In this document: piece by piece, positions 24,475 through 53,900 of the stretch
Position numbering within the stretch: position 1 is the first letter of the stretch
How the letters are laid out: each line of letters starts with the position of its first letter
From: Tolypothrix carrinoi HA7290-LM1
Lineage (GTDB): Bacteria > Cyanobacteriota > Cyanobacteriia > Cyanobacteriales > Nostocaceae
Direction of reading: 5' to 3'
NCBI GenBank assembly: GCA_019358935.1
Contig: JAHHIK010000008.1
Span: 52,153-116,152 of the forward strand
DNA: 64,000 nt
The notes under the pieces: generated by a model
Database searches by the model: none
What the model was told of the DNA's origin: nothing
The model's input: the letters and a program-made list of their open reading frames with translations, nothing else
Made by a program: the position numbers and the translations under genes

Positions 24475-24519
24475 ACGCCAGTTGCCTCAACGGAGGACGC
24501 CTCCGCACGGCACTGCCTC
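24475..24519 (+). mobile_element. 45-nt hairpin mini-element inserted in an (ATGCCCC)n array
   Basis: acgccagttgcctcaacggaggacgcctccgcacggcactgcctc; removal restores the heptamer phase. Confidence 0.8.
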
Positions 24520-24553
24520 CCCCATGCCCAATGCCCAATGCCCCAGAATGCCA

Positions 24554-24591
24554 ATAAAAAACCGACAGACTTCTTCAAAAGGCTGTCGGCA
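24554..24591 (-). terminator. Orphan Rho-independent terminator
   Basis: Minus strand gccgacag-ccttttgaagaagt-ctgtcggt followed by ttttt; no CDS upstream on that strand. Confidence 0.6.
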
Positions 24592-25121
24592 ATTAGTGTG
24601 TTCCCTATTAATGACTCGGCTAGAGTTCAGTTATATGTAATTATGCCGGTTTACCCGTTTTTAGAAGACGATCTTAATCATGGGCATCAGTGATTGTCAT
24701 CACATGATTGTTGCAGCTTAACTGTATTTACCTAAAAAGAAATTTTTCACTTCGGATTTCTCCTATGCACATTTTGACAAAATAAACTGTATTTTTTGGT
24801 TACAACTTATTAAATTATCTAAATATCAAGGCATCTAATGGAAAATGCATAAAATTATCTATGCGATCGCAAAAACACTTCTACTCAACGCTTCTTTGGG
24901 TTGCACTATACCCAATTAAGTTTTCACAAGCGACAAAATTACAGCTACACCCAATACTGTTGATGCCAGTTATAACTCAAAAATTAACAGAGGGCACACT
25001 AAAATGCCATAATTTCTGTTGAAGGCGAAAAAATCCCGATTACACTAAGACTTTACGACCAATACAGTCACTTATTCACTTTGCGGCACATAATATTTTT
25101 GAGTTTTTCAAATCAAAGAAA

Positions 25122-25952
25122 GTGAGAACTGACACGATATTTTATCAACTTTTTCAGACTTTGCCTGGTATTCTCTTTGAACTCATCGGTCAATCTGCTA
25201 ATCAAGCAGAAGCTTATCAGTTTGCATCTGTTGAAATCAAAGAATTAGCCTTTCGCTTCGATGGTTTGTTTTTACCTTTAGCGGATTTGCCCGAACAACC
25301 CATCTACTTTGTCGAAGTTCAGTTTCAACCCAAAACCGATTTTTACTGGCGATTGTTTGCCGAAATCTTCGTTTACTTAAATCAATACCAACCGATTCAA
25401 GATTGGCGTGCAGTAGCAGTGTTTGCCAAACGAAGTTTAGATCCAGGCGTACCGATGCAGTACAGAGGATTGCTGATGAGTCAGCAAGTCACATTTGTGT
25501 ATTTAGATGAATTAGAGTCAACAGTAAATACGTCCCTTGGTTTAGGAATAGTGCAGTTAGTAGTTGAGGAGGAAGCGACAGTTAATGAACAAGCTAGGCA
25601 ATTACTTCAGAAAGCACAGCAGGAACTTGAAGATGTTGCCCTCAGGCAGAAAGTTTTAGAATTGATAGAGACGATATTGGTTTATAAGTTGACCAATTTA
25701 AGCCGCGAGGAGATAGAAGCTATGTTTGGGTTAAGTGAGTTAAAGCAGACAAGGTATTTTCGAGAAGTCGCACAAGATGCCAAAAAAGAGGGCAAACTAC
25801 AGGGCAAACTAGAAACAGTACCCCTATTATTGGAGTTGGGGTTGACTGTCGAACAGATAGCTGAAAGATTAAGCTTGGATGTTGAAGCGGTAAGAAAGGC
25901 TGCACAAACGTCTTCTGTTGATAATTCCCAAGGTGAAGATACAGGAATTTAG
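25122..25952 (+). CDS. Rpn-family (DUF2887-like) nuclease / putative transposase
   Basis: RTDTIFYQLF, SVEIKELAFRFDG, IYFVEVQFQ, C-terminal EGKLQGKLE..LTVEQIAERLSL. Confidence 0.88.
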   Translation: MRTDTIFYQLFQTLPGILFELIGQSANQAEAYQFASVEIKELAFRFDGLFLPLADLPEQPIYFVEVQFQPKTDFYWRLFAEIFVYLNQYQPIQDWRAVAVFAKRSLDPGVPMQYRGLLMSQQVTFVYLDELESTVNTSLGLGIVQLVVEEEATVNEQARQLLQKAQQELEDVALRQKVLELIETILVYKLTNLSREEIEAMFGLSELKQTRYFREVAQDAKKEGKLQGKLETVPLLLELGLTVEQIAERLSLDVEAVRKAAQTSSVDNSQGEDTGI

Positions 25953-26054
25953 TGATTTAATGAAGAGCGATCGCGCTTATAGTTTGCTGTGATGAAGTGC
26001 GATCGCTATTCTAAATTAGTCTAAGATAGTTGTCTAATTTTGCTTTTTCAAAAT

Positions 26055-26927
26055 TTAAATGCTAACAGCAAGTATTTGAGCTTTTTTTTGCTCGAACTCT
26101 TGATTGCTAATGATGCCAGAATTTCTTGCATTTTCGAGTTGTTTTAATTTTTCTGCAAATGCAATTTCATTTTTAATTGCCGCAGACTTATTATCAAACT
26201 CTTCTTGACTGAGTATTCCGGCTGCTAGAGCAACTTTTAATTGCGATAGTTTACCGTCCATTTCCACATTTGATGACTGTGCCATCAATTCTGCTTTCTT
26301 TATCTCATATTCCTCTTGGGTTAAAATTCCCGCATTTAAAGCATTTTTTAGCTTTGTCAGCTTATCGTTAAGCTCTTGATTTTTTTTGCGATCGACAGCC
26401 TGATTTTCAATTTCTCTTCTCTTTGCATGATATGCTACTTCATCAATTAATCCTTGGTCAAATACTTCTTTTAGTTGTTTCAGCTTTTCTTCTACAGATT
26501 GTTCAGCCTTCAAAACAGTAATTTCTCGTTCTGATTTTGCCTTTTCACCAAAGATGGTCTTATTTTCAATAAAATTCCATATATCAGCTTCAATTTTTTT
26601 TGACCATCCAGCTGCCAATCCACTTCCAATAAGGCTGACACCTCCTGTGAGAACTGCGGCAACACCACCAGCAGCTAAATTTGTTGCCCATTCTCCCGTT
26701 CCGACTTCAACACAAAAGTCATTTGGTTGTCCCTCAATTAAAATATTAAAAGCTCTAGATGCTCCAACTGCTTTTCGCCATGCTTCCACTTTCTGAGCTT
26801 GTACAATCCACGCTTTTTCGGCTTTGTTGGATTGCACTTGATATCCCTGTTCGGAGAACCATGATTGAATATCTTTAGTTAAAGTATCCAAATCACAATT
26901 TTTGTTTTGATAAGGTTTCTTAGTCAT
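26055..26927 (-). CDS. Multi-SHOCT-domain protein with a glycine-rich hydrophobic hairpin
   Basis: Four L..LK...G(I/L)(I/L)...E(F/Y)..K(K/R) repeats; LAAGGVAAVLTGGVSLIGSGLAAG segment. Confidence 0.8.
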   Translation of the reverse strand: MTKKPYQNKNCDLDTLTKDIQSWFSEQGYQVQSNKAEKAWIVQAQKVEAWRKAVGASRAFNILIEGQPNDFCVEVGTGEWATNLAAGGVAAVLTGGVSLIGSGLAAGWSKKIEADIWNFIENKTIFGEKAKSEREITVLKAEQSVEEKLKQLKEVFDQGLIDEVAYHAKRREIENQAVDRKKNQELNDKLTKLKNALNAGILTQEEYEIKKAELMAQSSNVEMDGKLSQLKVALAAGILSQEEFDNKSAAIKNEIAFAEKLKQLENARNSGIISNQEFEQKKAQILAVSI

Positions 26928-27050
26928 GAGTTTTACCCGCTCAATAATAATGTCTTGTCTACATGATTTTCTTAAGTTTATATGATTATTGTGTAGAGTG
27001 TTTTTACTGAAAATTATACGATTTAAATGATATTTACATGATTTTTTGAT

Positions 27051-27407
27051 ATGGCGTTCTCCTTGGGCAAATGCCTTAAGGCTACTCGCGAATCTCTAGG
27101 TATGACTCAGGAGCAAGTCATTGAGCAGCTAGAGCTTCGTTACGGGATAACACTTAGTCAACAAGCTATATCGACTATTGAAAACGGAAAACGAAAGGTA
27201 GAAGCAGAAAAAGAATTACCTGCGCTAGCGGGAATTTACGGAAAATCAATAGATTACTTTTACGAAACCCTAGAATTACCCACTGCACCCGCACCTGCCC
27301 CAAGCGGCGTTAAGTCTATAATTACCGTTGACTTAGAAGCGCTTACCCAGCGCGATAAGCTAGAGTTAGCAGCAAAACTGATTCATAACGTCTTGCAACA
27401 AACCTAG
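27051..27407 (+). CDS. XRE-family helix-turn-helix regulator
   Basis: LKATRESLGMTQEQV..LSQQAISTIENGKRKV..LAGIYGKSIDYF. Confidence 0.9.
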   Translation: MAFSLGKCLKATRESLGMTQEQVIEQLELRYGITLSQQAISTIENGKRKVEAEKELPALAGIYGKSIDYFYETLELPTAPAPAPSGVKSIITVDLEALTQRDKLELAAKLIHNVLQQT

Positions 27408-27419
27408 CTTGGGGTAACG

Positions 27420-27734
27420 ATGGCAACAGAACAAAAACACAGCACTTATTTATCAGAAGCCGAAAGTCGTTTGCGTCAACTTTCTCTTGAGAAGTTGCGA
27501 GTAGCAGTTGCAATTATTGCTTATCTGCAAAAAACAGAAGAAAGCGAAGCAACTGAGAAACTATTATTAAATATTCCTGATTTTGCCGAATCTTTCCGCG
27601 AAATTGAACAAAGCGAAGACAAATTAGAAAATACTGCCTCAAATCAGATTGCCTCAGATGAGGAAGTATGGCAGGCTTATTTAGCAGTTGAAAAAAAATG
27701 GGAAGAGGTATTCCGTCGCCTTGCAGACTCCTAA
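27420..27734 (+). CDS. Putative antitoxin upstream of Doc
   Basis: Small acidic protein overlapping the doc start; C-terminal WEEVFRRLADS. Confidence 0.6.
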   Translation: MATEQKHSTYLSEAESRLRQLSLEKLRVAVAIIAYLQKTEESEATEKLLLNIPDFAESFREIEQSEDKLENTASNQIASDEEVWQAYLAVEKKWEEVFRRLADS

Positions 27735-28122
27735 ATTTCTCACTATTTCTCAAGTCTTAGATATTCACCAACGCCAAATTCAAAGATTTGGTGGAACAAA
27801 TGGCGTCAGAGACGAAGGTTTGCTAGATTCAGCACTGGCACAACCTCAAGCTACCTTTGGCGGTGAACTTCTTCATCCTACAATTGGTGAGCAAGCAGCA
27901 GCATACCTCTACCATTTAGCAATGAACCATCCGTTTATTGATGGCAACAAGCGCACCGCTTTCGCTGTTATGCTTACTTTTGTGGACTTGAACGCCTACA
28001 CTCTCAACCTATCTCAAGAGCAAGCTTACAACTTGGTGATTCAAGTAGTTCAGAGGGAAATGTCCTTCATAAGAATTATCTGCATTTCTGAAACTGCATT
28101 TACAGCGCCTGTAAATCGATAG
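27721..28122 (+). CDS. Doc/Fic-family toxin (C-terminus probably frameshifted)
   Basis: GVRDEGLLDSALAQP, NHPFIDGNKRTA Fic motif; likely TTG start at 27721. Confidence 0.9.
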   Translation: MQTPKFLTISQVLDIHQRQIQRFGGTNGVRDEGLLDSALAQPQATFGGELLHPTIGEQAAAYLYHLAMNHPFIDGNKRTAFAVMLTFVDLNAYTLNLSQEQAYNLVIQVVQREMSFIRIICISETAFTAPVNR

Positions 28123-28157
28123 AATAATTCTCTGTCCCCCAGAGTGCATTACTTCCC

Positions 28158-31100
28158 ATGACTGCAAGCTCAAAACCAGCCTTTTCCGCTGAAGAAATTG
28201 CCGCCGAAGGTTTAAAGCCAGAAGAATATGAAGAAATTGTCCGCAGGTTAGGGCGTCATCCCAACAAAGCCGAACTGGGAATGTTTGGGGTGATGTGGTC
28301 AGAGCATTGTTGTTACAAAAATTCACGACCGCTATTAAAACAGTTTCCCACGACAGGCGATCGCATTCTTGTTGGTCCCGGTGAAAATGCTGGTGTTGTC
28401 GATTTAGGCGACGGGCTGCAACTTGCCTTTAAAATTGAATCTCATAACCACCCTTCAGCCGTCGAACCGTTTCAAGGAGCCGCCACAGGCGTAGGAGGTA
28501 TCCTCAGAGATATATTTACAATGGGTGCGCGTCCCATTGCTCTTTTAAACTCCTTGCGCTTCGGTTCCCTAGAAGATGCCAAAACTCAACGGCTTTTCAG
28601 CGGCGTGGTAGCAGGTATAAGTCACTACGGTAATTGCTTAGTAGGCAAAGAAACATTTATTTGGCGCGATGTTACAGGCGTACATTTTGACACTATCGGC
28701 AACTTTGTAGAATCGCGGTTGCACTCAAATTACACAACTTTAGAATTAGATGACGCTATTGCTGTTGAGACTCTTTCTATAGACCCTGACACTCACGAAA
28801 GTTGTTGGCAGCGTGTGCGGCGTGTGTTTAAACGATGTACTAACACATTGATAACTATTCGTACATCCCTTGGTCGTACCCTCACGGTAACACCCGATCA
28901 TCCGATGTTAATTCGCTCAAGTAGTGATTGGGATATTTGTGTTGCCCAAAACTTAAAAGTTGGTCACGAATTGCCGATACTAATTTCCTTACCGCGATCG
29001 CAACAACAAAGTACACCAGCCATCGATTTACTTAGTGCTTTGGATGTGCAGCAACATCAAAATGTTTATGTACAACTGCCTGCAAATTGGCAAGCTACAG
29101 ATACTGTCCGTACAGCTTTGCGCTTGCTAGAATTTTCTGCCAGCGATCGTCACAAATATCTCACAACTGGTAGACTACCTCTAGAGCATTTTCTCAGTTT
29201 AGAAAAACTACTGAATGTGTCGCGTAGCGAAGTTTGCCTCTTCCGTCGGGGAAAAGCAAATTACATGAAGGCAGTTATTCAACCAAATGAGCAGTTTGCA
29301 CGCTTGCTTGGCTATTACCTTTCAGAGGGATGTGTTTCTCAAAACGCGAAGACCTATAAAATTATCTTCACCTTTGCCCTGCATGAAACCGAATATGTCA
29401 ATGATGTTGTGCATGGGCTAAAAAATTTGGGACTGCGCCCTTGTGTTGAAAAACGAACTTCTACAATTGCTGTTTATGCCACTTCATGGTTGTTTGGACA
29501 TATTTTGAAAAATGTTTGGCACTGCGGCACTAAAGCAAGTGATAAAGCTTTTCCCAGCTTTGTTTTCCAATGGTCGCCTAACTTACAGCATGAAGTTCTT
29601 AAAGGTTTGTTTAGAGGAGATGGTTCCCTAACCACAAAAACTCATGGAAATCATGCCAAAATCAGCTTTGCAACTACCAGTCGCAAATTGTTTGACCAAA
29701 CAGTCGCACTCGTTCAAAATCAGGGAGCAATTCCCTATATTTATCAGCGTCCAGCATCATCAGGACAAATTGAAGGGCGCAAGCATATACGCTTACCACT
29801 GTGGCAGTTAGAAATTAACAACTTCGCTGGACTGAAAACCCTAGAAAATGTCTTTTCCCAAGAACGCACTGCACAATTAGCCACAGCGCTGGCACGCTAT
29901 AACAAGGAAAAATATTCATTTCCGCGTTTCCGTAAATTCTCAGATGAGGTGGCAGTTGTCAAGATTAAAAGCATAGAAATTAATACAGTTGATGAATGTG
30001 ATGTCTATGATGTTGAAGTAGACAATACTCATCTTTTCGTCACTACTTCTGGCATTGTCACACATAACTGCGTTGGAGTGCCCACTGTCGGTGGCGAAGT
30101 TTATTTTGATGCCGCTTACTCCGGGAATCCCCTAGTAAACGTTATGGCGCTAGGATTGATGGAAACTCCAGAAATTGTCAAATCTGGCGCATCTGGTTTA
30201 GGCAACCCAGTATTGTATGTTGGTTCTACCACCGGACGCGATGGTATGGGAGGGGCAAGTTTTGCCAGCGCAGAACTCAGCGATGAATCACTAGATAACC
30301 GTCCTGCGGTGCAAGTTGGCGATCCCTTTTTAGAAAAGTCGTTAATTGAAGCTTGCTTGGAAGCGTTTAAAACAGGTGCAGTCGTTGCCGCACAGGATAT
30401 GGGTGCAGCTGGCATCACTTGTTCTACATCAGAAATGGCTGCAAAAGGCGGTGTCGGCATTGAACTGGATTTAGATAAAATACCCGTGCGAGAATCGGGT
30501 ATGGTTCCCTATGAATATCTGCTTTCGGAATCTCAAGAAAGAATGCTGTTTGTGGCACACAAAGGACGCGAACAAGAATTAATCGATATTTTCCATCGGT
30601 GGGGACTGCAAGCGGTTGTTGCGGGAAAAGTTATAGCCGAACCCATTGTTAGAATATTATTCCAAGGTGGAATTGCCGCAGAAATTCCCGCTGAAGCTTT
30701 GGCAGAAAATACCCCATTGTATGAACGAGAATTATTGACAGAAGCACCAGAGTATGCTGTTAAAGCTTGGGAATGGACGCCTAATTCTCTCCCTGCTTGC
30801 ACAACTGCTGGCATTGAAATTCAAGGAAGCTTGCAAAGTTGGAATGATATTCTTTTGACTTTACTCGATACACCGACGATCGCATCAAAACGCTGGGTTT
30901 ATCGCCAATACGATCATCAAGTCCAAAATAACACCGTCATCTTACCAGGTGGCGCTGATGCCGCTGTCGTCCGGTTGCGTCCCCTTGAGGAGGACAAGGG
31001 GAGTGGGGGAGTGGGGGAGGGGGACGAGGGGACAAGGGGACAAGGAGGACAAGGGGGACAAGGGGGACAAGGGGGACAAGGGGGACTCCTTGGAGACAAT

Positions 31101-32153
31101 TCTTTCTCCCCCACTCCCACACTCCCCCACTCCCCCACTCCCCAACGCCAGTCGCTACAAACTCCTCCACCCCCGCAACGCGCTGGCTCCTCCCCACTCC
31201 CCACTCCCCAAAGTGCCGTTGCTGCGACGGTAGATTGCAATCCTCGTTACGTTTATCTTGACCCTTACGAGGGTGCTAAGGCAGTTGTTGCTGAAGCTGC
31301 ACGCAATCTTAGTTGTGTGGGTGCTGAACCTTTGGCTGTGACTGATAACTTAAATTTCGGCAGTCCGGAAAAACCGATTGGTTATTGGCAATTATCAGAA
31401 GCTTGTCGCGGTTTGGCTGAGGGTTGCCGAGAATTAGCAACGCCGGTTACTGGCGGTAATGTCTCACTTTACAATGAAACTTTCGACTCAGAAGGCAACC
31501 CGCAACCAATTTATCCTACCCCGGTTGTGGGGATGGTCGGGTTGATTCCGGATTTAAGCAAAATTTGCGGTCAAGCTTGGCAAGCTGAAGGCGATATTAT
31601 TTATCTTTTAGGATTGCCTTTAGAATCTAAAGTTGAATTGGGAGCATCGGAATATTTAGCCACTATCCATAATACTGTAGCTGGACACCCCCCACGGGTA
31701 GATTTTGAATTGGAAAGGTGTGTACAACGAATTTGCCGTGAAGGAATTCGCAATGGTTGGATTCGTTCAGCTCATGATTGTGCTGAAGGTGGTTTAGCTG
31801 TCGCTTTGGCAGAATGTTGCATTGCTGGCAAACTTGGTGCCGAAATTAATTTAGGATTAGCATCAAGCAATTCACAACTTCGATGGGATGAGGTGCTGTT
31901 TTCTGAAGGTGGAGCGCGAATTATCGTTTCTGTAGCGTTAGAACAGCAAGAAGTTTGGGAATCTTTATTAAATGAACAATTGGCTAATTATTGGCAAAAG
32001 CTGGGCAAGGTTAGTAATTCCAACACTGATTTGGGGGTGTTAACCTCTGATAACCAAAGTTTAATCAAGGTTAGGATCGAAGATATGAGCGATCGCTATT
32101 CCCATGCGATTGAAAGACGTTTAAAAGGTGCCGAGTTAAAAGTTATGAGTTAG
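28158..32153 (+). CDS. purL: Phosphoribosylformylglycinamidine synthase subunit PurL, with an intein and an in-frame repeat insertion
   Basis: [58 protein letters not shown]. Confidence 0.98.
28635..30068 (+). mobile_element. Intein with LAGLIDADG homing endonuclease (478 aa) in purL
   Basis: N-terminal C (GN/CLVGKET), block [18 protein letters not shown] and LKGLFRGDG motifs, block F VYDVEV, C-terminal VTHN/C(+1). Confidence 0.96.
30990..31210 (+). repeat. In-frame STRR insertion within purL containing a 45-nt element (31145-31189)
   Basis: Encodes ..[44 protein letters not shown].. Confidence 0.9.
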
Positions 32154-32483
32154 GAGTTATGAGTTATGAGTTATGAGTTGAAGAAGGTTCTGAACCTCCT
32201 CATTCTTAACGAAAGCTCCTCCTGACTCCAGAAGAACTGACTCTTGACTCCCAACTCCGCTCCTCCCAACTTTCAACTTTGCTCCTCCGCTCCTCCGCTC
32301 CTCCGCTCCTCCGCTCCTCCTGACTATTCACCATAAATCCTTGCTAACCCCAGGCATGATTAAGGTACTGTTATATGTATATAGATTGTTAACGATTTGT
32401 TAAGGTCAGTTAATATTTCTGAAAACAATCACTTATATATCCATCCCACTGACTCAAAACCTCATCTGGAGCAAAGCTGTAGC

Positions 32484-33956
32484 ATGATTCCTAACCATTC
32501 CGTCTCCTTGGATGACCACGCAATTGAAGCCCGTGCTGACAAGCCAGAAGAAGCTTGCGGCGTTTTTGGCATCTACGCACCAGGGGAAGATGTTGCCAAA
32601 CTGACCTACTTTGGACTTTATGCCCTTCAACACCGAGGTCAAGAGTCAGCGGGAATTGCCACATTTGCAGGGGAAGAAGTACACCTGCACAAAGATATGG
32701 GTTTGGTATCCCATGTGTTTAACGAATCAACTTTGAGTAAGTTACCAGGTAACTTAGCCGTTGGTCACACTCGTTACTCTACTACAGGTTCCAGCCGGAA
32801 AGTTAACGCCCAGCCTGCTGTTGTCGAAACTCGCTTGGGTTCAATAGCTTTAGCACATAATGGTAATTTAGTCAATACCGGGCACTTAAGAGAAGAGTTG
32901 CTAAAGAGCAAATGCAACTTAGTGACGACAACCGATTCAGAAATGATTGCTTTTGCGATCGCCGAAGAAATCAATGCTGGTGCAGACTGGTTAGAAGGCT
33001 GCATTCGTGCATTTAACCGTTGCCAAGGTGCCTTTAGTTTAGTAATTGGCACTCCAACTGGTGTTATGGGCGTTCGCGATCCTAATGGCATTCGTCCTTT
33101 AGTAATTGGCACCTTGGGAGAAAATCCAGTTCGCTACGTTCTCGCATCAGAAACCTGTGGACTAGATATTATTGGTGCCGATTATCTCCGCGACGTAGAA
33201 CCGGGCGAATTAGTTTGGATTACCGAAGATGGTTTAGCTTCGTTTCCTTGGAGTCAACAACCCCAAAAGAAGCTGTGTATCTTTGAGATGATTTACTTTG
33301 CCCGCCCCGACAGTATGATGAACGATGAAACATTGTACAGCTACCGACTGCGGTTAGGGCGGCGACTAGCTGAAGAATCTGCTGTAGAAGCAGATATTGT
33401 ATTTGGTGTTCCTGATTCTGGTGTACCAGCTGCGATCGGCTTTTCTCAAGCTTCTGGTATTCCCTACGCTGAAGGACTGATTAAGAATCGTTACGTCGGG
33501 CGCACCTTCATTCAGCCAACACAAATGATGCGCGAATCCGGAATCAAAATGAAACTCAATCCCCTCAAAGATGTCCTATACGGCAAAAGAGTGGTGATTG
33601 TGGATGATTCCATAGTCCGGGGTACAACCAGCCGAAAACTCGTCAAAACCTTGCGGGATGCGGGTGTAGTGGAAGTGCATATGCGAATTTCCTCACCCCC
33701 AGTAACTCACCCTTGTTTCTACGGTATCGACACAGACACCCAGGATCAGCTAATTGCTGCCACCAAATCAGTAGAAGAAATTGCCAAACAACTAGAAGTT
33801 GACACCTTAGCCTATCTCAGTTGGAAAGGAATGCTAGAAGCAACGCGAGAAGACACTAATAGTTTTTGTTCCGCTTGCTTTACCGGCGATTACCCCACCT
33901 CAATTCCGGAAGCGCTCAAAGGTTCTAAATTGATATTAGAAAAAGCAGCAGTCTAG
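32484..33956 (+). CDS. purF: Amidophosphoribosyltransferase
   Basis: EEA/CGVFG, LQHRGQESAG, GHTRYSTTG, VDDSIVRGTTS, FCSACFTGDYP; likely ATG 32484. Confidence 0.99.
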   Translation: MIPNHSVSLDDHAIEARADKPEEACGVFGIYAPGEDVAKLTYFGLYALQHRGQESAGIATFAGEEVHLHKDMGLVSHVFNESTLSKLPGNLAVGHTRYSTTGSSRKVNAQPAVVETRLGSIALAHNGNLVNTGHLREELLKSKCNLVTTTDSEMIAFAIAEEINAGADWLEGCIRAFNRCQGAFSLVIGTPTGVMGVRDPNGIRPLVIGTLGENPVRYVLASETCGLDIIGADYLRDVEPGELVWITEDGLASFPWSQQPQKKLCIFEMIYFARPDSMMNDETLYSYRLRLGRRLAEESAVEADIVFGVPDSGVPAAIGFSQASGIPYAEGLIKNRYVGRTFIQPTQMMRESGIKMKLNPLKDVLYGKRVVIVDDSIVRGTTSRKLVKTLRDAGVVEVHMRISSPPVTHPCFYGIDTDTQDQLIAATKSVEEIAKQLEVDTLAYLSWKGMLEATREDTNSFCSACFTGDYPTSIPEALKGSKLILEKAAV

Positions 33957-34096
33957 GGCATGGGGCAATGGGCATTGGGCATTGGGCATCGGGCATTGGG
34001 CATCGGGTCATCGGGTCAAGATTTGGCTTTATTCCCAATTCCCAATTCTTAATTCTCAATGCCCATTGCCCATTGCCCCATGCCCCATTCCCAAAT

Positions 34097-34378
34097 TTAG
34101 CTTTGCTGCAAAAATTCTACATTGGGTAACAACGGATCTGTAACAATGCCCACACCGCTGAAACCCCAGCGTTTCAGCAAACTTTTTACCTGCGTCCCTG
34201 GAATAGATTCTACAGAAAAGCGGCTTGCCAGTTCTGCGGCGTGGGTGTTGAGGTAGCTGAGGGCGTCAAAATGTTCGCCAAATAGCAACAAATAGCTTGT
34301 TCCTTGCGAGTTAGGACGGGCAGTAAGATAACTACCGTCAGATTTTGAGCGTATTAGATAATAAACTTCGGACAACAT
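34097..34378 (-). CDS. Conserved cyanobacterial hypothetical protein (93 aa)
   Basis: MLSEVYYLIRSKSDGSYL..LKRWGFSGVGIVTDPL; the upstream extension in the ORF track is repeat-derived. Confidence 0.8.
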   Translation of the reverse strand: MLSEVYYLIRSKSDGSYLTARPNSQGTSYLLLFGEHFDALSYLNTHAAELASRFSVESIPGTQVKSLLKRWGFSGVGIVTDPLLPNVEFLQQS

Positions 34379-34527
34379 GGAGGGGAGGGGGGGAGTGGGG
34401 GAGTGGGGGAGTGGGGGAGTGGGGGACAAGGGAGACAAGGGAGACAAGGGAGACAAGGGGGACAAGGGGGACAACCAACCACCAACCACTAACAACTAAC
34501 AACTAACAACTAACAACTAACAAGCAA

Positions 34528-35574: not shown

Positions 35575-35597
35575 AGTAGTTTGTCAAACGTCAACAG

Positions 35598-35687
35598 GAG
35601 CCAGTGCCGTGGTGAGGCAGCGCGGTCTTGGGGGTTTCCCCCATGAGCGACTGCCGAAAGGGTTTCCCGACTTGAGGCATCTGGCGT
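35598..35687 (-). mobile_element. Two nested 45-nt mini-elements (inner 35614-35658)
   Basis: Outer 29+16 nt split by a 45-nt relative; removing 90 nt restores the (GTCAANA)n array. Confidence 0.8.
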
Positions 35688-35744
35688 TCAATAGTCTTGA
35701 GTCAAAAGCCTTTGGACTGTAGACTTTGGACTTTGGACTTTTGA

Positions 35745-36263
35745 CTAATATTCCACAAGGCTAATAATCGGCACATCCGGCAGATTTTTTCGCCCTTGCA
35801 AATCCCGTAGCTCGATGATAAACCCAAATCCCACAAGTTCGCAGCCAATCTTCTCTATTAACTTTGCCGTCGCACTCGCGGTTCCACCTGTCGCAATCAA
35901 ATCATCTACAATCAAAACCCGGCTATTGGGGTGCAAAGCGTCCTGATGCATTTCCAAACAGTCCGTACCATACTCTAGTTCATATTCAACCGAATGAACT
36001 GCTGCTGGTAACTTACCTGGTTTGCGAACTGGAATAAAACCAACTCCTAATTTATAAGCTAGAGGTGTACCAAATATGAAGCCCCGCGACTCCATCCCCA
36101 CAATATAATCAGCTTTTAATCCGGCATCAATGCATTTTTCGGCAAAAATGTCAATAGTGTAACGCAGTCCTTGTGGATCGCGCAGCAGTGTGGTGATATC
36201 CCGAAAGACAATTCCGGGTTTAGGAAAATCTGGGATGTCACGAATCAGAGACTTTAAATCCAT
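35745..36263 (-). CDS. apt: Adenine phosphoribosyltransferase
   Basis: [36 protein letters not shown]; true start ATG 36263. Confidence 0.98.
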
Positions 36264-36270
36264 AAGAATA

Positions 36271-42771: not shown

Positions 42772-42896
42772 TTCAAACATAATCGCATTCTTGCCACCAG
42801 GGAATAGTCGGTTTGTCTAAATGCCGATTATCAATTTCTAATGGTGGCATTTAAAGATCGTGTTGATTAGAGTTGAAACGAAAAACGTCAGAAAAG

Positions 42897-42952
42897 AAAA
42901 TTAAGCCTGCTTACTCTTGGGGTTTTTCAAAGTAGTAAGCAGGCTTAATTTT
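42897..42952. terminator. Bidirectional hairpin between convergent genes
   Basis: aaaattaagcctgcttact...agtaagcaggcttaatttt perfect inverted repeat. Confidence 0.7.
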
Positions 42953-42985
42953 GTGAGGACTTCAGTCCTCACAGGAGAAGGAATG

Positions 42986-43510: not shown

Positions 43511-43590
43511 GGCAAGTTAGTCAAGTATCATTTGTCAAAAGTCAAGTGTCATTAGTCATGAGCTTTTGACAAACAACAAATGACATTGAA

Positions 43591-44960: not shown

Positions 44961-44979
44961 GTTAACCTTGTGTTTACCT
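44961..44979 (+). promoter_or_regulatory. Cyanobacterial Pho box (SphR/PhoB site)
   Basis: GTTAACCT-tgt-GTTTACCT, an 11-bp-period repeat just upstream of pstS. Confidence 0.7.
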
Positions 44980-45022
44980 TAAAGCGGTATCTTAAAAGCG
45001 CTACCTGAAAAATTACATAAAA

Positions 45023-46210: not shown

Positions 46211-46444
46211 CGATCGCGAAAAGTCAACAGTCCATAGTTGTAGAGACGCAAGGGTATCGCGTCTGTACGAGTCAATAGTCTTGAGTCGAAAGTCCAAAGA
46301 GTCAAGAGTTAAGAGTCCAAAACCAATGACCAATGACCAATGACTATTGACTATTGACCATTGACTATTGACCACTAACCATTGACCATTGACTAATAAA
46401 GGTTCGCTCCCGCATTTTCGCAACGATTTGATTTTTGCGTTCGT

Positions 46445-47395
46445 ATGACTACACAACCCCAGAATCCTCCATCAGGACTTAGACAACGCTCAGAAGTAGA
46501 AAAGTCACTAGATAGTGGCTTTGTTTGGCTGACTCGGATTTTTGCTTTTGCGATCGCCTTTACTTTATTATGGATAGCAGGGCAAGTATTCGTAGGAGCT
46601 ATCCCAGCAATCCAAAAGTTTGGTCTGAGTTTCTTAGGTAAAAGCGCTTGGAACCCAGTCAATGACGATTATGGCGTACTGCCTCAAGTTTACGGAACTC
46701 TCATGAGTTCGTTTATCGGTTTGTTGATAGCTGTACCCATTGGTGTTGGTACCGCTGTTATCCTCAGCGAAAATTTTCTCCCACCTAAAGTCAAGCTGGT
46801 ACTAGTTTTCTTAGTAGAACTGCTAGCAGCAATTCCCAGCGTTGTCTACGGCATATGGGGTATTTTCGTCTTGGTTCCCCCCTTAACCAGCTTCGGAAAA
46901 TGGCTGAATGCTTCCTTTGGCTTTTTGCCAATTTTTAGCAGTCCTCCTACAGGTCCAAATTTATTGGTTGCGGGATTTATCCTCGCGATTATGACTTTGC
47001 CAATTATTACCGCAATTTCCCGCGATGCGTTGATTTCCGTACCTCCTAGCTTGCGACAAGCAGCTATTGGACTGGGTGCAACTCGCTGGGAAACAATTTT
47101 GAAAGTTCTCATCCCAGCAGCTTTTTCTGGGATTGTCGGTGCTGTGATGCTTGCACTCGGTCGGGCAATGGGCGAAACTATGGCTGTCACCATGTTGATT
47201 GGTAACTCCAACAATATTAGTACCTCGCTATTTGCCCCAGCGAACACGATTTCTTCTCTACTGGCAAACCAATTCGCTGAAGCTAGTGGTTTACAAGTTG
47301 GCGCTTTAATGTATGCTGCTTTAGTACTATTTGTTTTGACGCTGATTGTCAACATCTTGGCAGAGTTAGTTGTTCTTCGAGTCAAGCGGCTGTAA
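46445..47395 (+). CDS. pstC: Phosphate ABC transporter permease
   Basis: ELLAAIPSVVYGIWG, LGATRWETI, GRAMGETMAV. Confidence 0.97.
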   Translation: MTTQPQNPPSGLRQRSEVEKSLDSGFVWLTRIFAFAIAFTLLWIAGQVFVGAIPAIQKFGLSFLGKSAWNPVNDDYGVLPQVYGTLMSSFIGLLIAVPIGVGTAVILSENFLPPKVKLVLVFLVELLAAIPSVVYGIWGIFVLVPPLTSFGKWLNASFGFLPIFSSPPTGPNLLVAGFILAIMTLPIITAISRDALISVPPSLRQAAIGLGATRWETILKVLIPAAFSGIVGAVMLALGRAMGETMAVTMLIGNSNNISTSLFAPANTISSLLANQFAEASGLQVGALMYAALVLFVLTLIVNILAELVVLRVKRL

Positions 47396-47409
47396 ATAAT
47401 TGATGTTAT

Positions 47410-48318
47410 ATGGCTTCTACTAATTTTTCCAAAAATTCTCCCAGCGGATACAGCAGCGGCAGTCTAACTCGCACTGCTTCGTCTCCCCGGACGATGTTCA
47501 ACACAATCATGACCGTTGTCGCTTTTATTTGTGCGGTAATGGCGATTATACCGCTGGTTGCGGTGCTAGGTTACGTTATCTTTCAAGGCTTTAGTAGTCT
47601 TAATATCAGTGTATTTACTGAACTGCCACCGCCTCCTTTAAGAAAAGGTGGCGGCTTTGGTAATGCCATTTTGGGAACAATTTTAATGGTAGGAATCGCC
47701 GCAGCAATTAGCATTCCTTTGGGAGTGATGGCGGCAATTTATTTAACAGAGTTTAGCTCTGGCAAGACAGCGCGGGTCATACGTTTTGCTACCAACGTTC
47801 TCAGTGGAGTTCCGTCAATTATTGCCGGGGTATTTGCTTACGGGATTGTCGTTTTGACATTGACTAAGCTGGGGTTAGGTTCTTACTCAGCTTTGGGCGG
47901 AGGCGCTGCTCTGTCAATTTTGATGTTACCGATTATCGTGAGAACTACGGATGAAGCTTTACAATTAGTATCACAAGATTTGCGACAAGCAGCTGTAGGT
48001 ATTGGCGCAACTAAGTTTCAAACAGTATCGCAGGTAGTGTTACCAGCAGCTTTACCAGCAATTGTCACCGGCTCGACGCTAGCGATCGCCCGCGCATCTG
48101 GAGAAACAGCACCACTACTTTTTACGGCTTTATTTTCTCCATTCTGGCCCGATGGCTTATTCAAACCCACAGCTTCCCTTGCTGTTTTGGTTTACAATTA
48201 TGCTATATCTCCATTTAAAAATTGGCAGTCACTAGCTTGGGCAGCTTCTTTAATATTAGTGCTGTTGGTTTTATTAACCAGCATTATCACTCGTTGGGCG
48301 ACTCGTCAGAAAGTTTAG
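47410..48318 (+). CDS. pstA: Phosphate ABC transporter permease
   Basis: AAIYLTEF, LSGVPSII, ARASGETAPLLFT. Confidence 0.97.
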   Translation: MASTNFSKNSPSGYSSGSLTRTASSPRTMFNTIMTVVAFICAVMAIIPLVAVLGYVIFQGFSSLNISVFTELPPPPLRKGGGFGNAILGTILMVGIAAAISIPLGVMAAIYLTEFSSGKTARVIRFATNVLSGVPSIIAGVFAYGIVVLTLTKLGLGSYSALGGGAALSILMLPIIVRTTDEALQLVSQDLRQAAVGIGATKFQTVSQVVLPAALPAIVTGSTLAIARASGETAPLLFTALFSPFWPDGLFKPTASLAVLVYNYAISPFKNWQSLAWAASLILVLLVLLTSIITRWATRQKV

Positions 48319-48473
48319 TCAGTAGCGCGAATTGATATCATTACAGAATTTGGAAAAATAATTGTGGATTGACATCTTCCTATGGGAAGATTTTGACATA
48401 GCGATGGAAATATTTCAGCCTAACTGACGATGGGTGCTTACAACCCTGTTTTACAAAACTTAAACCTTCCTTT

Positions 48474-49280
48474 ATGACTACTAACATTGATACGGTAAAA
48501 GACACGGACACAGTATTGCGGACGGAGGGTGTGAACGTTTATTACGGCGATTTCCTAGCTGTAAAAAACATTTGGCTAGATATCCCGAAAAACAAGGTGA
48601 CAGCCTTTATTGGTCCCTCTGGCTGTGGTAAAAGTACTTTGTTGCGATGCTATAACCGCTTAAACGATTTAATTGACAGCTTCCGGGCAGAAGGGAAAAT
48701 TTTTTATTGTGGTAAGAATTTATACGCCCCAGACATCGATCCGGTAGAAGTGCGGCGCCGGATTGGAATGGTGTTTCAAAGACCAAACCCATTTCCGAAA
48801 TCAATTTATGACAATATCACTTTTGGCGCAAAAATTAACGGCTACAAAGGTGATATGGATGAATTGGTAGAAACCAGTCTGAGAAAAGCAGCTTTGTGGG
48901 ATGAAGTTAAAGATAAACTCAAGCAAAGTGGTTTATCTTTGTCGGGTGGACAACAGCAACGCTTGTGTATTGCGCGAGCGATCGCTGTACAGCCAGATGT
49001 TATCCTCATGGATGAACCTTGTTCGGCACTTGACCCGCTTTCCACCCTCAGAGTTGAAGAACTGATTACCGAACTCAAAGAGCAATATAGCATCATCATC
49101 GTCACCCACAACATGCAACAAGCAACACGGGTGTCAGATGTAACAGCATTTTTCAACGTTGAACCCACAGAAAAAGGCGCTCGTATGGGCTATTTGGTGG
49201 AGTACGACAAAACAGAATTAATTTTCAATGACCCCAAGCAGAAAGCAACCCAAGAGTACATTAGCGGTCGTTTCGGTTAA
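48474..49280 (+). CDS. pstB: Phosphate ABC transporter ATP-binding protein
   Basis: [39 protein letters not shown]. Confidence 0.98.
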
Positions 49281-49308
49281 AAATTGCATCCCGATAATTC
49301 AACGTATT

Positions 49309-49338
49309 GTAGAGACGTTCTACACCGAACGTCTCTAC
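49309..49338. repeat. GTAG-type REP-like palindrome (other copies at 46240-46268 and 59475-59504)
   Basis: gtagagacgttc-tacacc-gaacgtctctac. Confidence 0.75.
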
Positions 49339-49368
49339 GATTCATACCACGGTATGTTGTATCTACAA

Positions 49369-49439
49369 AGCGGGCGGCGGGAATCGAACCCGCATTATTA
49401 GCTTGGAAGGCTAAAGTTTTACCACTAAACTACGCCCGC
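49369..49439 (-). tRNA. trnG: tRNA-Gly (anticodon TCC)
   Basis: GCGGGCGTAGTTTAGTGGTAAAACTTTAGCCTTCCAAGCTAATAATGCGGGTTCGATTCCCGCCGCCCGCT; cloverleaf, CCA not encoded. Confidence 0.97.
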
Positions 49440-49500
49440 AAGTTTCCAACCTCCATAATATAACACAATGCGTGGTAATAGTTCAAGCAATTAATCAAAA

Positions 49501-50778
49501 TTAACGCCGCTGTATTTTGACCCGGACAAAGCGATTAGCAAAATCTGGTACTGGTGTACCATTTGTGGAGCGAGCAGGCTGAAATTTTTCGCCTTGGAAA
49601 ATAGAGTTAGCGAATTCCTCATATTTGCTTTCTTGTCCTGGTGGTATCGCCTGATATACAGTAATTTCAGGCTGTACAATACCATTTTTGTCAATCACCA
49701 AGCTAGCCAAAAACTCTCCCTCTGGAAGGTCTGTTGAATCAATTTGTTTCTCCTTAATGCCCCGATATTCGGGTAGAATCAAACCTTCGGGTAAAGGACT
49801 TCGCATCAAACTTCTCTGTTCTTCTCGACTTAAAAAACCCCAACTAGCTATTATTCCTCCTCCTGTTGAAGGTTGAGGAGTTTTGCGGGTAGGAGGAATT
49901 TGCTCTTCTTCACCGATTGGCTGACGTGGAGTTTTCCGACTTGAAATTGGTGAATCTTCACCAATTGGCTGACGTGGAGTTTTCCGACTTGAAATTGGTG
50001 AATCTTCACCAATTGGCTGACGTGGAGTTTTCCGACTTGGAATTTGCTCTTCTTCACCAATTGGCTGAGGTGGAGTTCTCCGACTGGGAATTTGCTCTTC
50101 TTCCCCAATTGGCTGACGTGGAGTTCTGCGACTTTGAGTTGGTGAATCTTCCCCAATTGGCTGACGTGGAGTTCTCCGACTTTGAGTTGGTGAATCTTCC
50201 CCAATTGGCTGAGGTGGTTCAACTGGTGTAAATTTTGGTAACGGTGTCGGCTTTCCTAAACTGATTCTTTCACGCTCGCGTTTCCAACGAAGATTACCAA
50301 GTGAATTTGTCGGTGTTGCTGTGGGTGTGGGTGTTGGTGTTGGTGTGGGTGTTGGTGTGGGTGTGGAAACTGATTGTTTAGGAACGAGTTGAGTATTAGA
50401 TTTAGAGACAAAAGTGTTTCTTTTTCTTTGTTGACGACTTGCACCAAAATTTATCCCGCCAGAATTTTCATTTTTTGGCGTGACTGTTGAAGATTGTTGA
50501 TTTGCTGAAGGTGGAGAGACTGTTTTAACGTTTAATTGTGGTTTTGCTGGTTTAGCTTTTGATGAGGAAGGAGAAATCTCGATAATCTCAATCGGAACAA
50601 TTGCTTGACTATCTCGTGGAAACCACAGACCAAACGCATTATTATAGCGCATTAGCCAGAACACCAGCAAATGCAAAGCAACTGAACTCGTGACTACAGC
50701 AATCCACAAACCCGGCGGATCGTTGTGTCGCCTTGATGTTACATCTTTTATTGCAGTTTGGTCAACCGATTGAGTCAT
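49501..50778 (-). CDS. Membrane-anchored Pro-rich repeat protein (TonB-like architecture)
   Basis: N-terminal TM with SVALH, PT run, about 7 x 16-aa repeats (48-bp units at about 49880-50215), C-terminal globular domain. Confidence 0.75.
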   Translation of the reverse strand: MTQSVDQTAIKDVTSRRHNDPPGLWIAVVTSSVALHLLVFWLMRYNNAFGLWFPRDSQAIVPIEIIEISPSSSKAKPAKPQLNVKTVSPPSANQQSSTVTPKNENSGGINFGASRQQRKRNTFVSKSNTQLVPKQSVSTPTPTPTPTPTPTPTATPTNSLGNLRWKRERERISLGKPTPLPKFTPVEPPQPIGEDSPTQSRRTPRQPIGEDSPTQSRRTPRQPIGEEEQIPSRRTPPQPIGEEEQIPSRKTPRQPIGEDSPISSRKTPRQPIGEDSPISSRKTPRQPIGEEEQIPPTRKTPQPSTGGGIIASWGFLSREEQRSLMRSPLPEGLILPEYRGIKEKQIDSTDLPEGEFLASLVIDKNGIVQPEITVYQAIPPGQESKYEEFANSIFQGEKFQPARSTNGTPVPDFANRFVRVKIQRR

Positions 50779-50905
50779 ATTAGATAAGTGGTAATTGGTA
50801 ATTGGTAATTGGTAATTGGTAAAAAAATATTCACCACTAACTCCTAACTCCTAACTCCTAACTCCTAACTCCTACTCCTAACCACTAACTCCTAACCACT
50901 ATCGA

Positions 50906-53900
50906 TTATCGACTAACTGTTACTTCTGGTTTGACAGCAAACGTCAGAACTGTTTCATCTATTCCTTTAAGTTCTAGCGGACTACCTTTAATGATTTCAT
51001 CTTCATCCAAATAATCTGCAACCGCAGCAGAAACGAGGATAGTACCAGGAACAGCAGCAACTTGCAATCTGGAGGCAATATTCACAGAAGGACCGATCGC
51101 AGTATAATCGGCACGTTCGGCGCTACCAAACATCCCGACAACTGCTGTACCTTGGTGAATACCACAGCGAAACTGTAAGCCATTACGTCCGTCGGAGTCA
51201 AATATACCTTGTTCTCGCCAACGCTGGTTTAATTCACTCAATGAACGATGCATTCCTCTTGCTGTGTTGATCGACCGACGCACCTGTTCATTAGGCGTTA
51301 GTTCTTCCGGCGCTCCATATAAAGCTAAGATAGCATCTCCCATAAATTTATCGATGGTACCGCCATTCTCAAAGACCACTTTGGTCATTGATTCTAAATA
51401 TTCATTAAGCAATTCCGCTACACGTCGCGACCTGAGGGTGTTTGATAGTTGAGTAAAACCCACAATGTCACTAAACAAAACTGTAATCAAACGCGGTTCT
51501 GGTCGCAAATCCAAAACTAAATCTCCGGTTGCGGCTTTTTGCACCAACGCACTTGGTAAAAAGCGCTTAAGCACCGATTCTGTTAGGTAAGTATTTAACT
51601 CCAAAACTCGGCGTTCATTTTCTTTCAAAGCTAAGAGATTTCGCACCTCAGCCAGAAGTTCGCGATCGTTAAATGGTTTAGCTAAATAAGCATCTGCACC
51701 TTTTTCTGTACCTTCGATGCGGGTTTCTTCATCAACTTTCGCCGTTAACAGGATAATTGGAATTCCTTTCAACTTTTCTTCGTTGCGAATCATGCGAATC
51801 ATCTCCATACCTGACACCAAAGGCATCATCAAGTCGCTGACAATTAGGCGTGGTATTATTTCCTTAGCCATCAGAAATCCTTCGGAACCGTTACGCGCTG
51901 TATGCACTCGATAGCCGTTGGCGCGGAGAATTTCTGATACATAAGTCCGCAAATCTGGGTTATCATCTACGACCAAAATTGATTCGCCAATTTTCAGTTC
52001 ATTTTCTTGAGTGTTAACACTATTTAATAAGTCTTTTTTAATATTTTCAAATTCTTCTATTGATTGTAATTCTAAATCAGCTAATTCAACGTTAGCGCGG
52101 CTGATGTTCAATTCACAAGGCGCTTCTAGCAACTGTTCTGTAGGTAGATGAGCGCCTCCGCTGACCAGCCATAAGCTAAAGGTAGTACCTTTGCCGTAAA
52201 CTGATTCTACAGTGACTTTACCGCCGTGCATTTCCACGAGTTCTTTGACCAAAGCCAAACCTAAGCCGCTACCTTCATAAGAGCGATTTTCAGTTCCTTC
52301 AGCTTGGCGAAAGCGTTCAAATAAGTGGGGAATTTGTTCAGTAACAATGCCAATTCCCGTATCTTGTACTTGCAATCTACAGCGATCGCCTTGAGATTGC
52401 AATCTCACAGTAATACTACCACCTATGTCTGTAAATTTCATGGCATTCGACAGCAGGTTATAAAGTACTTTGTCGAATTTTTCCATATCTAAGTACACTG
52501 TAGGAGATGCTTCTAGTTCGGTAATCAGATTCAGTCCCTTTTTCTCGCAATAGGGACGAAACGATTCGACAATTTGGTTGACAAATTCAACTAAATCGCA
52601 GGGACGGAAACTAGGCTGCATTCTTCCAGCATCCAGACGTTGCAAATCGAGTAGTTGATTTACCAGTCTTAGCAAGCGTCTGGAGTTGCGTAAGGCGATC
52701 GCACTTTGGGCATATGATAACCCTTCTTTTGTCGCTACCGCTGATTCTAGGGGTCCTTGAATTAAGGTTATAGGCGTGCGGAACTCGTGAGAAATATTTT
52801 GGAAAAATTCGGTTTTTTGTTTGTCTAATTGCAGCAAGCGTTCAGCTTGTTCGCGAGTTTTTTGGTATAAATGTGACTGCTGTACAGCGATCGCTGCTTG
52901 AGCTGCGACAGAAGAAGCTAACTCAATTTCTGTAGGCAGCCACTTGCGCGATCTGCTATCTTGACGCAGAGTAATACTACCGATGCTTTTGCCATCAGCC
53001 AGTAAAGGAACCACCATGAGCGATCGCGCTTTTCCTCTTAAGGGCAAATCAAACCCCTTGATTTCTGGCGGAGACTGGCTCATATCCGTAATTACCACAG
53101 GTTCTTGTGTCCGCAACATTTCTTGCAGAATTGGATTAGAGTGAATCGGTGACTGAGATTGAGGTAATTCCTGATTGTCTATGTAATTATGACTACCTGT
53201 CTCCCAAGGATGATCTAGTTTGAAAGAATCCTCTGAACTGTAAGAACTTTCATACAAGCCCACACACTTGACATACTCATCTTCCTCTGTCCACAAAGAC
53301 AAAACACAGCCATCGACTTGCAAGGCTTGTCCTAATTGTTGGGTGATCGCTGCAAAAATATCTTCAGGATCTAAGCTAGAGCGAATCGCGCTCGTAATCG
53401 TATTGATTAGCGATTCCCGTTTCGCCAAAGCACGCACTTGCTCGTAAGCATAAGCTTGAGACAAAGCTAAAGCTGCCTGATCCGCCACCATCACCACTAA
53501 CTGCACCTCGTCTGTTGACCACAAACGGGGCTGCTTGCACTGATGCAGCGCCAGCACCGCCATAAGTTCTTGTCGGCAAATCAGTGGAACTACCAAGCTA
53601 GAGCAAATTTTAGCTGTAGCAAAAGCAGCAGCGCGACTTAATAGCTCGGCAGTATCGCCCTGAATACGCTCATCTTTTGCAACATCATGAATCACCTGCA
53701 CTTCCCGGATTTCCCATACTGTCTGCGCTAGTAGAGGGGGATGGGAAGAGGGGGGAAGGGGGAGCCAGTGCGTTGCGGAGCCAGCGCTGTGCGGAGGTTC
53801 CCTCCGTTGAGGCGACTGGCGTGGGGTTCCCCCCGTTGTAGCACCTGGCGTGGGAGTGGGGGAGAGGGTGATGGGGAGAGGGGGGGATGGGGAGAAAGAA

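Follow-up and report, generated by a model that had tools for sequence, protein, structure and literature searches.

Nostoc punctiforme and its relatives reportedly carry eight families of small dispersed repeats (SDRs) of 21-27 nt, and Elhai et al. are said to have described them in 2008 as occupying heptamer hosts, nesting in themselves and showing compensatory changes, with a mover that was unknown. Lack of a target duplication, polarity, a short motif 5' of the cut and terminal hairpins are the hallmarks of two further systems, IS200/IS605 and REP/RAYT. Published work states that SDR5 inserts precisely into HIP1 (PMC4390886), that SDRs are centred on the Nostocaceae (PMC5861425) and that REP/REPIN sequences with RAYT are small non-autonomous hairpins in many copies for which single-strand mobilisation by an HUH protein is proposed (PMC3116915, PMC3733652); the Nostoc SDR description by Elhai et al. 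2008 is cited in PMC2884548 and PMC6513891. Here we describe a 45-nt hairpin family from a 64,000-nt stretch of Tolypothrix carrinoi HA7290-LM1 (assembly GCA_019358935.1, contig JAHHIK010000008.1, positions 52,153 to 116,152, forward strand; hereafter the window), which lies on contig C8 of the source genome (G000; 7.96 Mb in 184 contigs) and in which a first-pass annotation had picked out the family at four loci. The family is a real and recently active, SDR-like mobile micro-element, of a kind that is known and with a mechanism that is open. We are nearly certain of the joint claim that it is mobile, that it inserts exactly and with fixed polarity at a loose motif without duplicating it, that its stems are under selection, that survival inside genes requires the reading frame to be kept, and that copies then spread as passengers of their hosts.

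Evidence for movement

Nineteen nested 45-mers delete to hosts that are found free in the genome, and because these deletions are exact, several of them with unambiguous ends, we conclude that insertion makes no target duplication. Target-site duplication, a trait of miniature inverted-repeat transposable elements (MITEs), was found in neither the nested nor the orthologous cases; the annotation had already claimed its absence, which tandem arrays alone cannot show. Empty sites, nested deletions and covariation together support the annotation's picture of a non-autonomous, structured and mobile micro-element. The units of the window and their hosts are:

24475..24519 (+), core unit A, 45 nt, intergenic in a CCCCATG heptamer array, with one outer-stem mismatch (C-C)
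24385..24546, ends approximate, no strand, STRR-type inverted heptamer-repeat island hosting unit A
31145..31189 (+), core unit B, 45 nt, in frame in purL, a variant lacking the inner hairpin
30984..31214 (+), repeat-derived purL insert hosting unit B, 231 nt
28158..32153 (+), purL, host gene of unit B, with AIRS domains and a LAGLIDADG intein
35598..35687 (-), composite C, 90 nt, intergenic, of a recurring composite type
35614..35657 (-), inner unit of composite C, 44-nt subtype, ends uncertain by 1-2 nt
35575..35748, no strand, inverted repeat island hosting composite C, with orthologous lengths of 88-170 nt that are free of the 3-base rule
53762..53851 (-), nested pair D, 90 nt, in frame in cyaC, a canonical host of 45 nt interrupted after nt 29 by a second 45-nt unit
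53778..53822 (-), inner unit of pair D, 45 nt, z -3.7 and -4.0 for the two strands
53732..54004 (-), repeat-derived insert hosting pair D in the first GAF region of cyaC
50906..54601 (-), cyaC-type adenylate cyclase, host gene of pair D, with receiver, GAF, kinase and cyclase domains

The name cyaC rests on the annotation and on the domain order. Empty alleles occur in relatives, one of them, at cyaC, being exact. A contig of sequencing run X2, which represents another strain (20 differences), skips exactly 53762-53851. The cyaC tract is empty in three congeners, two relatives have degenerate extended forms elsewhere in it, and G009 carries one different 45-mer 31 nt further upstream. These last two sites are reciprocally empty: that of the G009 unit is empty letter for letter in G000, and that of G000 is empty in G009 with a difference of a single C within a run of C. 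In all seven orthologous loci read, site 35598 is empty. The purL inserts of 15 other genomes are repeat tracts of 27-168 nt, none of which contains unit B, and in 16 of the 16 orthologous purL loci read the insert is a multiple of 3 (27-231 nt). At 24475 the difference extends to the entire host island, in place of which G009, G001 and G006 have other repeat islands. Across about 58 kb of syntenic DNA the window has four loci, G009 has one, G001 and G006 have none, and no locus is shared.

The six units claimed for the stretches at 24475, 31145, 35598 and 53762 are present at those places and on the strands assigned to them, five start ACGCCAG and all end CTG(G/C)CTC, and open reading frame (ORF) reading confirms that those at 31145 and 53762 are in frame. 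The further statement that deletion restores the phase of the flanks holds at the first three sites; at cyaC the flank is a degenerate C-rich tract in which no phase is clear. After removal of inner segments the six 45-nt strings fold with an outer stem of 5+3 bp and one bulged base, and five of them form an additional 6-bp hairpin with a 3-nt loop. Departures from the common outer stem and inner hairpin are the C-C mismatch in unit 24475 and the missing inner hairpin of 31145, a variant with further occurrences elsewhere in the genome. The placing of the inner copy after nt 29 of the outer one is right for pair D, whose host has seven occurrences in the census once nested copies are removed. 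For composite C it is an arbitrary parse, and the inner unit is better read as 44 nt than as the 35614-35658 of the annotation; any parse leaves a host of 44-47 nt, none of which was found free in the genome. Composite C probably arose by recombination between a core host and the extended sister class described below, and later spread as a unit.

The window has several other features. The purL intein has a LAGLIDADG-like domain at about residues 160-640, besides the repeat-derived loop, and directly upstream of purL (27051-28122, +) are a small helix-turn-helix gene and a Fic-domain gene, possibly a toxin-antitoxin-like pair. Heptamer or octamer inverted repeat islands without a 45-mer are found at 14950-15130, 21170-21390, 33940-34100 and 4220-4350, and the wholesale swapping of such islands between congeners, as seen at 24385-24546, suggests a mobility of their own. 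Rfam matches in the window are a 5' ureB small RNA (2424-2709, +) and a tRNA (49369-49439, -).

Structure, targets and spread

The census of G000 used a recursive structural descriptor that requires only a paired outer stem, with locally shuffled DNA as the control. It returned 532 units, compared with 15 in the shuffled DNA; a family filter keeps 492 of them (40 dropped) at 388 outermost loci. In a head-and-tail search the lengths peaked at 45 nt, with 97 pairs, and again at 90, with 22. Among 392 core copies, 290 (74%) measure 45 nt, 70 measure 46, 15 measure 47 and 17 have other lengths, so "exactly 45 nt", as the units were first described, is true of the mode and not of the family. A sister class of 55-58 nt is marked by a 5' leader hairpin. 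The single nesting site proposed earlier gives way to 11 positions in 104 nestings, with 64 at nt 29-30, others at nt 10, 11, 20, 25, 31 and 32, and nine antisense nestings at nt 18, 19 and 21. Free versions of the 45-mer host also occur for 17 nested sister units of 55-58 nt, and 15 of these 17 sit at nt 28-31. The units have a mosaic look, as if assembled from interchangeable modules. Other units of about 25 nt are nested inside 45-mers (e.g. on contigs C170, C64 and C77), and the genome holds two further motif families, with 9 and 20 matches, while the leader motif of the extended class has 134.

Pairing is strongly conserved. The outer stem of 125 distinct 45-mers shows Watson-Crick pairing, which compensatory swaps preserve at 4:42, 7:39 and 9:38; the exceptions are a single mismatch and a single G-T. 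The inner stem has swaps at 17:31, 19:29, 20:28 and 22:26 and tolerates mismatches, of which 102 cells are purine-purine on the reverse, G-rich strand compared with 23 on the forward strand. An alignment of 58 copies, three from the window and 55 from GTDB matches found with a pattern that did not require pairing, has 94% of cells paired (99.8% in the outer stem) and a covariation score of 0.418, against 0.120 for shuffled alignments, a test that relatedness inflates, and at most 0.106 with slid partners. The G-rich strand folds lower in 122-124 of the 125 distinct 45-mers, partly from composition. A likeness to domain V of group II introns was dropped, as a G/C variant at position 42 breaks the would-be triad.

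The unpaired bases at the two ends also covary: AC..TC occurs 323 times, GC..TT 42, AC..TT 9 and GC..TC never. If the two ends were joined, a GNRA tetraloop would close the outer stem on the G-rich strand in 374 of the 392 core copies (predicted junctions chiefly GTGA 323, GCAA 38 and GTAA 9), and the rare fourth combination, seen in G021, also gives GNRA. For the extended class, joining the ends would carry the stem on through the leader hairpin. Because the joined ends would form a GNRA-capped hairpin, we propose that the end covariation points to a circular single-stranded intermediate.

Core-class units enter 5' of C-Y-C-W-W on the C-rich strand, rarely after a T (108 distinct contexts), which on the G-rich strand is 3' of W-W-G-R-G, with orientation fixed; the motif is repeated in 74 loci of other genomes. 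Insertion follows this short sequence motif, rather than one structural position as the structure-guided targeting first suggested would have it. Position 4 of the element, which pairs with 42, and the base immediately 5' of the insertion covary, G going with G and C with C or A (odds ratio 9.5 in 112 distinct contexts of G000, and 6.2, p 0.002, in other genomes), a covariation that shared ancestry of subfamilies and hosts could produce. If it is true that the stem reads the target base, the unit would be a minimal scarless insertion system.

Hosts include heptamer islands, REP-like hairpins, IS200/IS605 elements and the family's own copies. Many copies appear to be passengers of host repeats, because the flanks on both sides agree out to 12 nt far more closely between identical units (0.57-0.96 identity) than between different ones (0.26-0.87); an identical unit sequence is also found in unrelated hosts. 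Genes are seldom among the sites: although about 80% of the genome is coding, only 34 of the 388 loci lie inside ORFs of at least 200 aa (mechanical calls covering 81% of the genome). The length tabulation shows multiples of 3 for 25 of 26 core loci inside ORFs and 198 of 265 outside (Fisher p 0.013). The claim that a 15-codon length lets units persist in genes therefore stands as a filter on survivors and falls as an account of the family's way of life, since so few loci lie in long ORFs; frame keeping is a survival filter on rare in-gene copies, which land in loops already opened by repeats. There is no orientation bias to transcription (20 sense and 14 antisense in ORFs; 107 versus 98 between tandem genes, n=205). 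Strand bias was likewise not found among neighbours (103 of 193 on the same strand) or relative to GC skew (195 of 388, in a genome with little skew, 184 contigs and origins not located), and strands are mixed among the 100 copies listed of 141 on the G251 chromosome. A long one-strand run in G251 had suggested a replication-strand bias but was an artefact of the listing, the fuller list being mixed and G000 showing no bias.

A strict pattern is present in 105 of 121 Nostocaceae genomes at 0-285 copies, with the source genome highest. Across the phylum it is present in 31 of 201 genomes, 11 of them outside the Nostocaceae, about three of which look like chance. Named records among the 80 stretches listed of 125 include Nostoc, Calothrix, Tolypothrix, Scytonema, Brasilonema, Microseira and Pleurocapsales, and plasmid copies occur in N. 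punctiforme PCC 73102 (pNPUN02), T. variabilis ATCC 29413, Gloeothece and Gloeocapsa. Three non-cyanobacterial GTDB matches lack the inner structure and were treated as chance. No match was found in phage records, and among the neighbours scanned around nine IMG/VR stretches with the unit no mobiliser recurred.

Of 13 copies examined from six low-copy genomes, eight are in or at IS200/IS605-type DNA: four keep the frame within the tnpB 3' end, three of these sharing a single site in the same element, one is upstream of tnpB, one downstream of iscB and two in DNA that matches sequence adjacent to tnpB. The Gloeothece plasmid copy is likewise in a tnpB 3' end, and the seven G040 copies examined are all in ordinary repeats. 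The tnpB 3' regions of G000 showed no enrichment (2 observed, 1.6 expected, with a mask that missed deeper tnpB copies at C110, C25 and C34). We read the tnpB-borne copies as hitchhiking into lineages where the unit hardly multiplies. Their units measure 45-90 nt with the G-rich strand as sense in all (L205, L209, L212, L213 and L225; in G000, C110:4547, C25, C34, C30 and C27). The 3' region of tnpB encodes a guide-RNA scaffold, and units in tnpB genes and 3' regions mark natural, tolerated insertion points. Beside one such element, at L209:2680-3756 (-) of G203, is a gene for a jacalin-domain protein with an aerolysin/ETX-MTX2-like domain, and L044 has a tandem array of a 21-nt unit downstream of an IS200/IS605 tnpA.

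Mode of movement and rival explanations

In the scheme we favour, the family is a micro-transposon that is non-autonomous, measures 44-47 nt (mode 45) and has a 55-58-nt sister class; selection keeps its 8-bp outer stem and, less strictly, the 6-bp inner hairpin. Copies inserted in genes survive only if the frame is kept, and many copies later ride with their hosts. For movement, the G-rich strand alone may fold into a rod and leave as a tiny circle, the junction of its two ends closing the outer stem with a GNRA loop. One-step strand transfer would then join it to a single-stranded target, in the manner of HUH "peel-and-paste" transposases, with the enzyme acting in trans. As an interpretation of ends, polarity and targets, this path from single-stranded rod through tiny circle to HUH-like strand transfer seems to us evenly balanced between right and wrong. 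A Y1-type HUH protein is our tentative best guess for the mover, from insertion chemistry and not from gene co-occurrence.

Searches by end-sharing, neighbourhood and co-occurrence found no mobiliser. Among the matches listed, no long autonomous partner sharing the ends was found within 4 kb, the matches being nested composites and three unrelated long pairings. The genome has seven Y1_Tnp genes, all closest to IS200/IS605 TnpA, and one RAYT gene, and in the flanks of the seven TnpA genes no similarity to the 45-nt unit was seen. Co-occurrence was examined in 54 genomes with at least 30 copies and 24 with at most two (of 121; genome size and kinship uncorrected), and the link to RAYT, GxxExxY, Y1_Tnp or reverse transcriptases that the annotation had put forward for study did not emerge, none of them cleanly tracking copy number among the 121 genomes. 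Of the high-copy genomes 43 of 54 have RAYT, which at E <= 1e-20 is missing from 11; of the near-empty ones 13 of 24 have it. GxxExxY has a modest positive association (50 of 54 and 14 of 24). The annotation's statement that the mobilising enzyme is not in the window is neither supported nor contradicted, since one of its own candidate classes is represented there: a GxxExxY (PDDEXK_3) gene at 2943-3320 (+) lies between urease genes, flanked by its own short repeats and without a unit, and nothing was found linking it to the 45-nt element; another GxxExxY gene has a unit inserted in its downstream repeat.

Several of the observations weigh against the scheme. Neither a circle nor an excision product nor an enzyme was observed, and among the 602 ORFs beside copies enrichment was found for no gene family. 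No copy lies beside any of the seven Y1_Tnp genes or the RAYT gene (none within 350 nt of the latter), and Y1_Tnp is found in 51 of 54 high-copy but also in 22 of 24 near-empty genomes (Spearman 0.29). G279, with 63 copies of which several are identical, has only weak, split Y1/RAYT matches in a draft of 340 contigs. IS200/IS605 would predict a replication-strand bias, and none was seen in these genomes of little skew. Seven nested copies start with an extra A and would give a loop of 5 nt instead of 4, the GNRA count is dominated by one conserved variant, and the folding-energy differences between strands partly reflect base composition.

The strongest rival to HUH-like strand transfer is an RNA route, the one reportedly favoured for Nostoc SDRs, in which a transcript would release the unit as structured or circular RNA and a reverse transcriptase in trans would copy it into DNA. 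GNRA at the junction is a classic RNA tetraloop, on the C-rich strand the extended-class leader spells a cUUCGg loop, 18 RVT_1 matches occur in the genome, and the sense orientation of the G-rich strand in all tnpB-gene copies seen would fit, several of these being one event. However, the outer stem has almost no G-U wobble, the inner loops are triloops, orientation is unbiased with regard to transcription, and the copies upstream of tnpB (L208) and downstream of iscB (L216) are oriented oppositely. Strong RVT_1 matches (E <= 1e-36), present in 43 of 54 high-copy genomes, also occur in 16 of 24 near-empty ones and are missing from G024 (105 copies), G016 (93) and G325 (78), weaker matches not being scored. 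We regard the RNA route as possible, yet unlikely. Rfam has no match at the four unit sites among 38 weak or unrelated matches, and no RNA run, all of them being contigs, contained more than 0.10 of the words. A more ambitious joint reading, to which we attach little weight, would have a self-contained mini-circle in which the 45-nt strand is both cargo and, through the 4:42 pair, guide, with a mover outside the tested Y1, RAYT, GxxExxY and group II reverse transcriptase classes that is shared with look-alike micro-elements in other phyla.

It is also conceivable, at a low probability, that no dedicated enzyme exists, and that recombination or gene conversion between repeat islands, together with carriage as cargo of larger repeats, moves the units, their stems serving to stabilise hairpins or transcripts. 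The shared flanks of identical units, the swapping of whole host islands between relatives, the mosaic look of the units and the eight of 13 low-copy-genome copies in or at IS200/IS605-type DNA are all what this would lead one to expect. It leaves unexplained the first entry, with exact ends every time, into unrelated targets: 131 distinct contexts, 11 positions in own copies (some antisense), tnpB coding DNA and REP-like hairpins, and identical units in different hosts. The distinct contexts and the nested deletions already imply fresh insertion at targets that lack homology with the donor's flanks. We assign a similarly low probability to a site-specific recombinase, IS110/IS1111-like or other, that would integrate a double-stranded mini-circle through a core of 1-3 bp. 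The extended class has C, CC or ACC on both sides, so the crossover could lie in a shared core, and subterminal inverted repeats and insertion at hairpins are IS1111 traits. But core units need no shared base, as is seen where a host is split between a G and a C and the ends are unambiguous, duplex circularisation would need more than 45 bp, and the matches listed include no long partner with these ends within 4 kb. That the unit is a domesticated host element kept for RNA stability, termination or as a protein-loop module is hardly credible: strict stem conservation across 105 of 121 genomes would suit it, but no orthologous site is shared even within the genus, copy number runs from 0 to 285, copies are depleted in genes and without orientation bias, and Rfam has no match at these places.

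Comparison with known systems

Set against systems of known chemistry, the 45-nt family differs from MITEs, with their terminal inverted repeats and DDE transposase, in having no target-site duplication. It resembles IS200/IS605 in this lack of duplication, in polar insertion by a short motif, in hairpin ends and in the circle intermediate that we infer, and its copies ride inside tnpB elements. It is, however, one rod and not two separate ends, its target motif is much looser, its ends are shared with no tnpA-bearing element of the genome, and no replication-strand bias was seen. Like REP/REPIN sequences the units are small, multicopy, non-autonomous hairpins, and REP-like hairpins host them, whereas the GTAG/CGTC tag (alignment A1) and the doublet organisation are lacking, no 45-nt copies flank the RAYT gene, and the presence of RAYT is not tracked.

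The annotation had also named NIS, which we take to be the P6b-loop insertions of the Nostoc trnL(UAA) intron. Both these and the 45-nt family sit in heptamer repeats, form side stem-loops and have similar length steps, the P6b steps being 24, 44-45 and 48 nt in PMC4476775 (Table S4). The link failed where tested, as the 45-nt family is in none of ten long P6b loops (301 genomes; loops of 100-130 nt, exact anchors) and five long loops with insertions carry an unrelated 24-nt unit. In three of these five a 21-22-nt unit is nested in the 24-nt unit (24+21 = 45). Identity with the P6b step of about 45 nt is rejected, since that step can be a 24-nt unit with a nested 21-nt unit. These two units account for long Nostoc-type P6b loops at L186, L189 and L190. 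Group I intron matches in G000 are at C30:8671-8936 (a tRNA-Leu-like gene), C18:56060-56312 and C11:51839-52036, the latter two in tRNA-Arg(CCT) and tRNA-Met as called by ARAGORN, and the small contig C183 carries a dense array of at least 19 tRNAs.

The resemblance to Nostoc SDRs drawn by the annotation is supported in behaviour. The 45-nt family is likewise dispersed in many copies, with precise insertion and without duplication; as is reported of SDRs, it occupies heptamer arrays, other small elements and its own copies and shows compensatory structural changes; it is present in N. punctiforme (the pNPUN02 copy) and centred on the Nostocaceae. It differs in length, 44-47 and 55-58 nt here compared with the 21-27 nt said to be typical. 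SDR2 reportedly also has a longer, attached form of about 45 nt, and this could be the 45-nt family. Because the family occurs in genomes surveyed by Elhai et al. 2008, it may already be listed there, a chance that we put near one half. A literature search found no description of the 45-nt unit, the SDR sequences of that paper not having been compared, and the same holds for the text of PMC3488679. SDR-like repeats are stated not to be found outside the Nostocaceae in PMC5861425, whereas the 45-nt family is there at low copy.

Polar insertion at a loose motif, the predicted GNRA junction on the G-rich strand, the covariation of stem and target, and hitchhiking in tnpB elements outside the Nostocaceae are new. 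Now that the ends are exact, the strand and target motif defined, the junction predicted and strains with 0-285 copies listed, movement of DNA of less than 50 bases becomes testable. Low-complexity loops that recur in the purL, cyaC and tnpB genes of Nostocales find their explanation in this family, and IS605 elements are shown to carry micro-element passengers between cyanobacterial families. Should the unit match a listed SDR exactly, the results on strand, junction, target and hitchhiking would remain as additions to what is described for that system.

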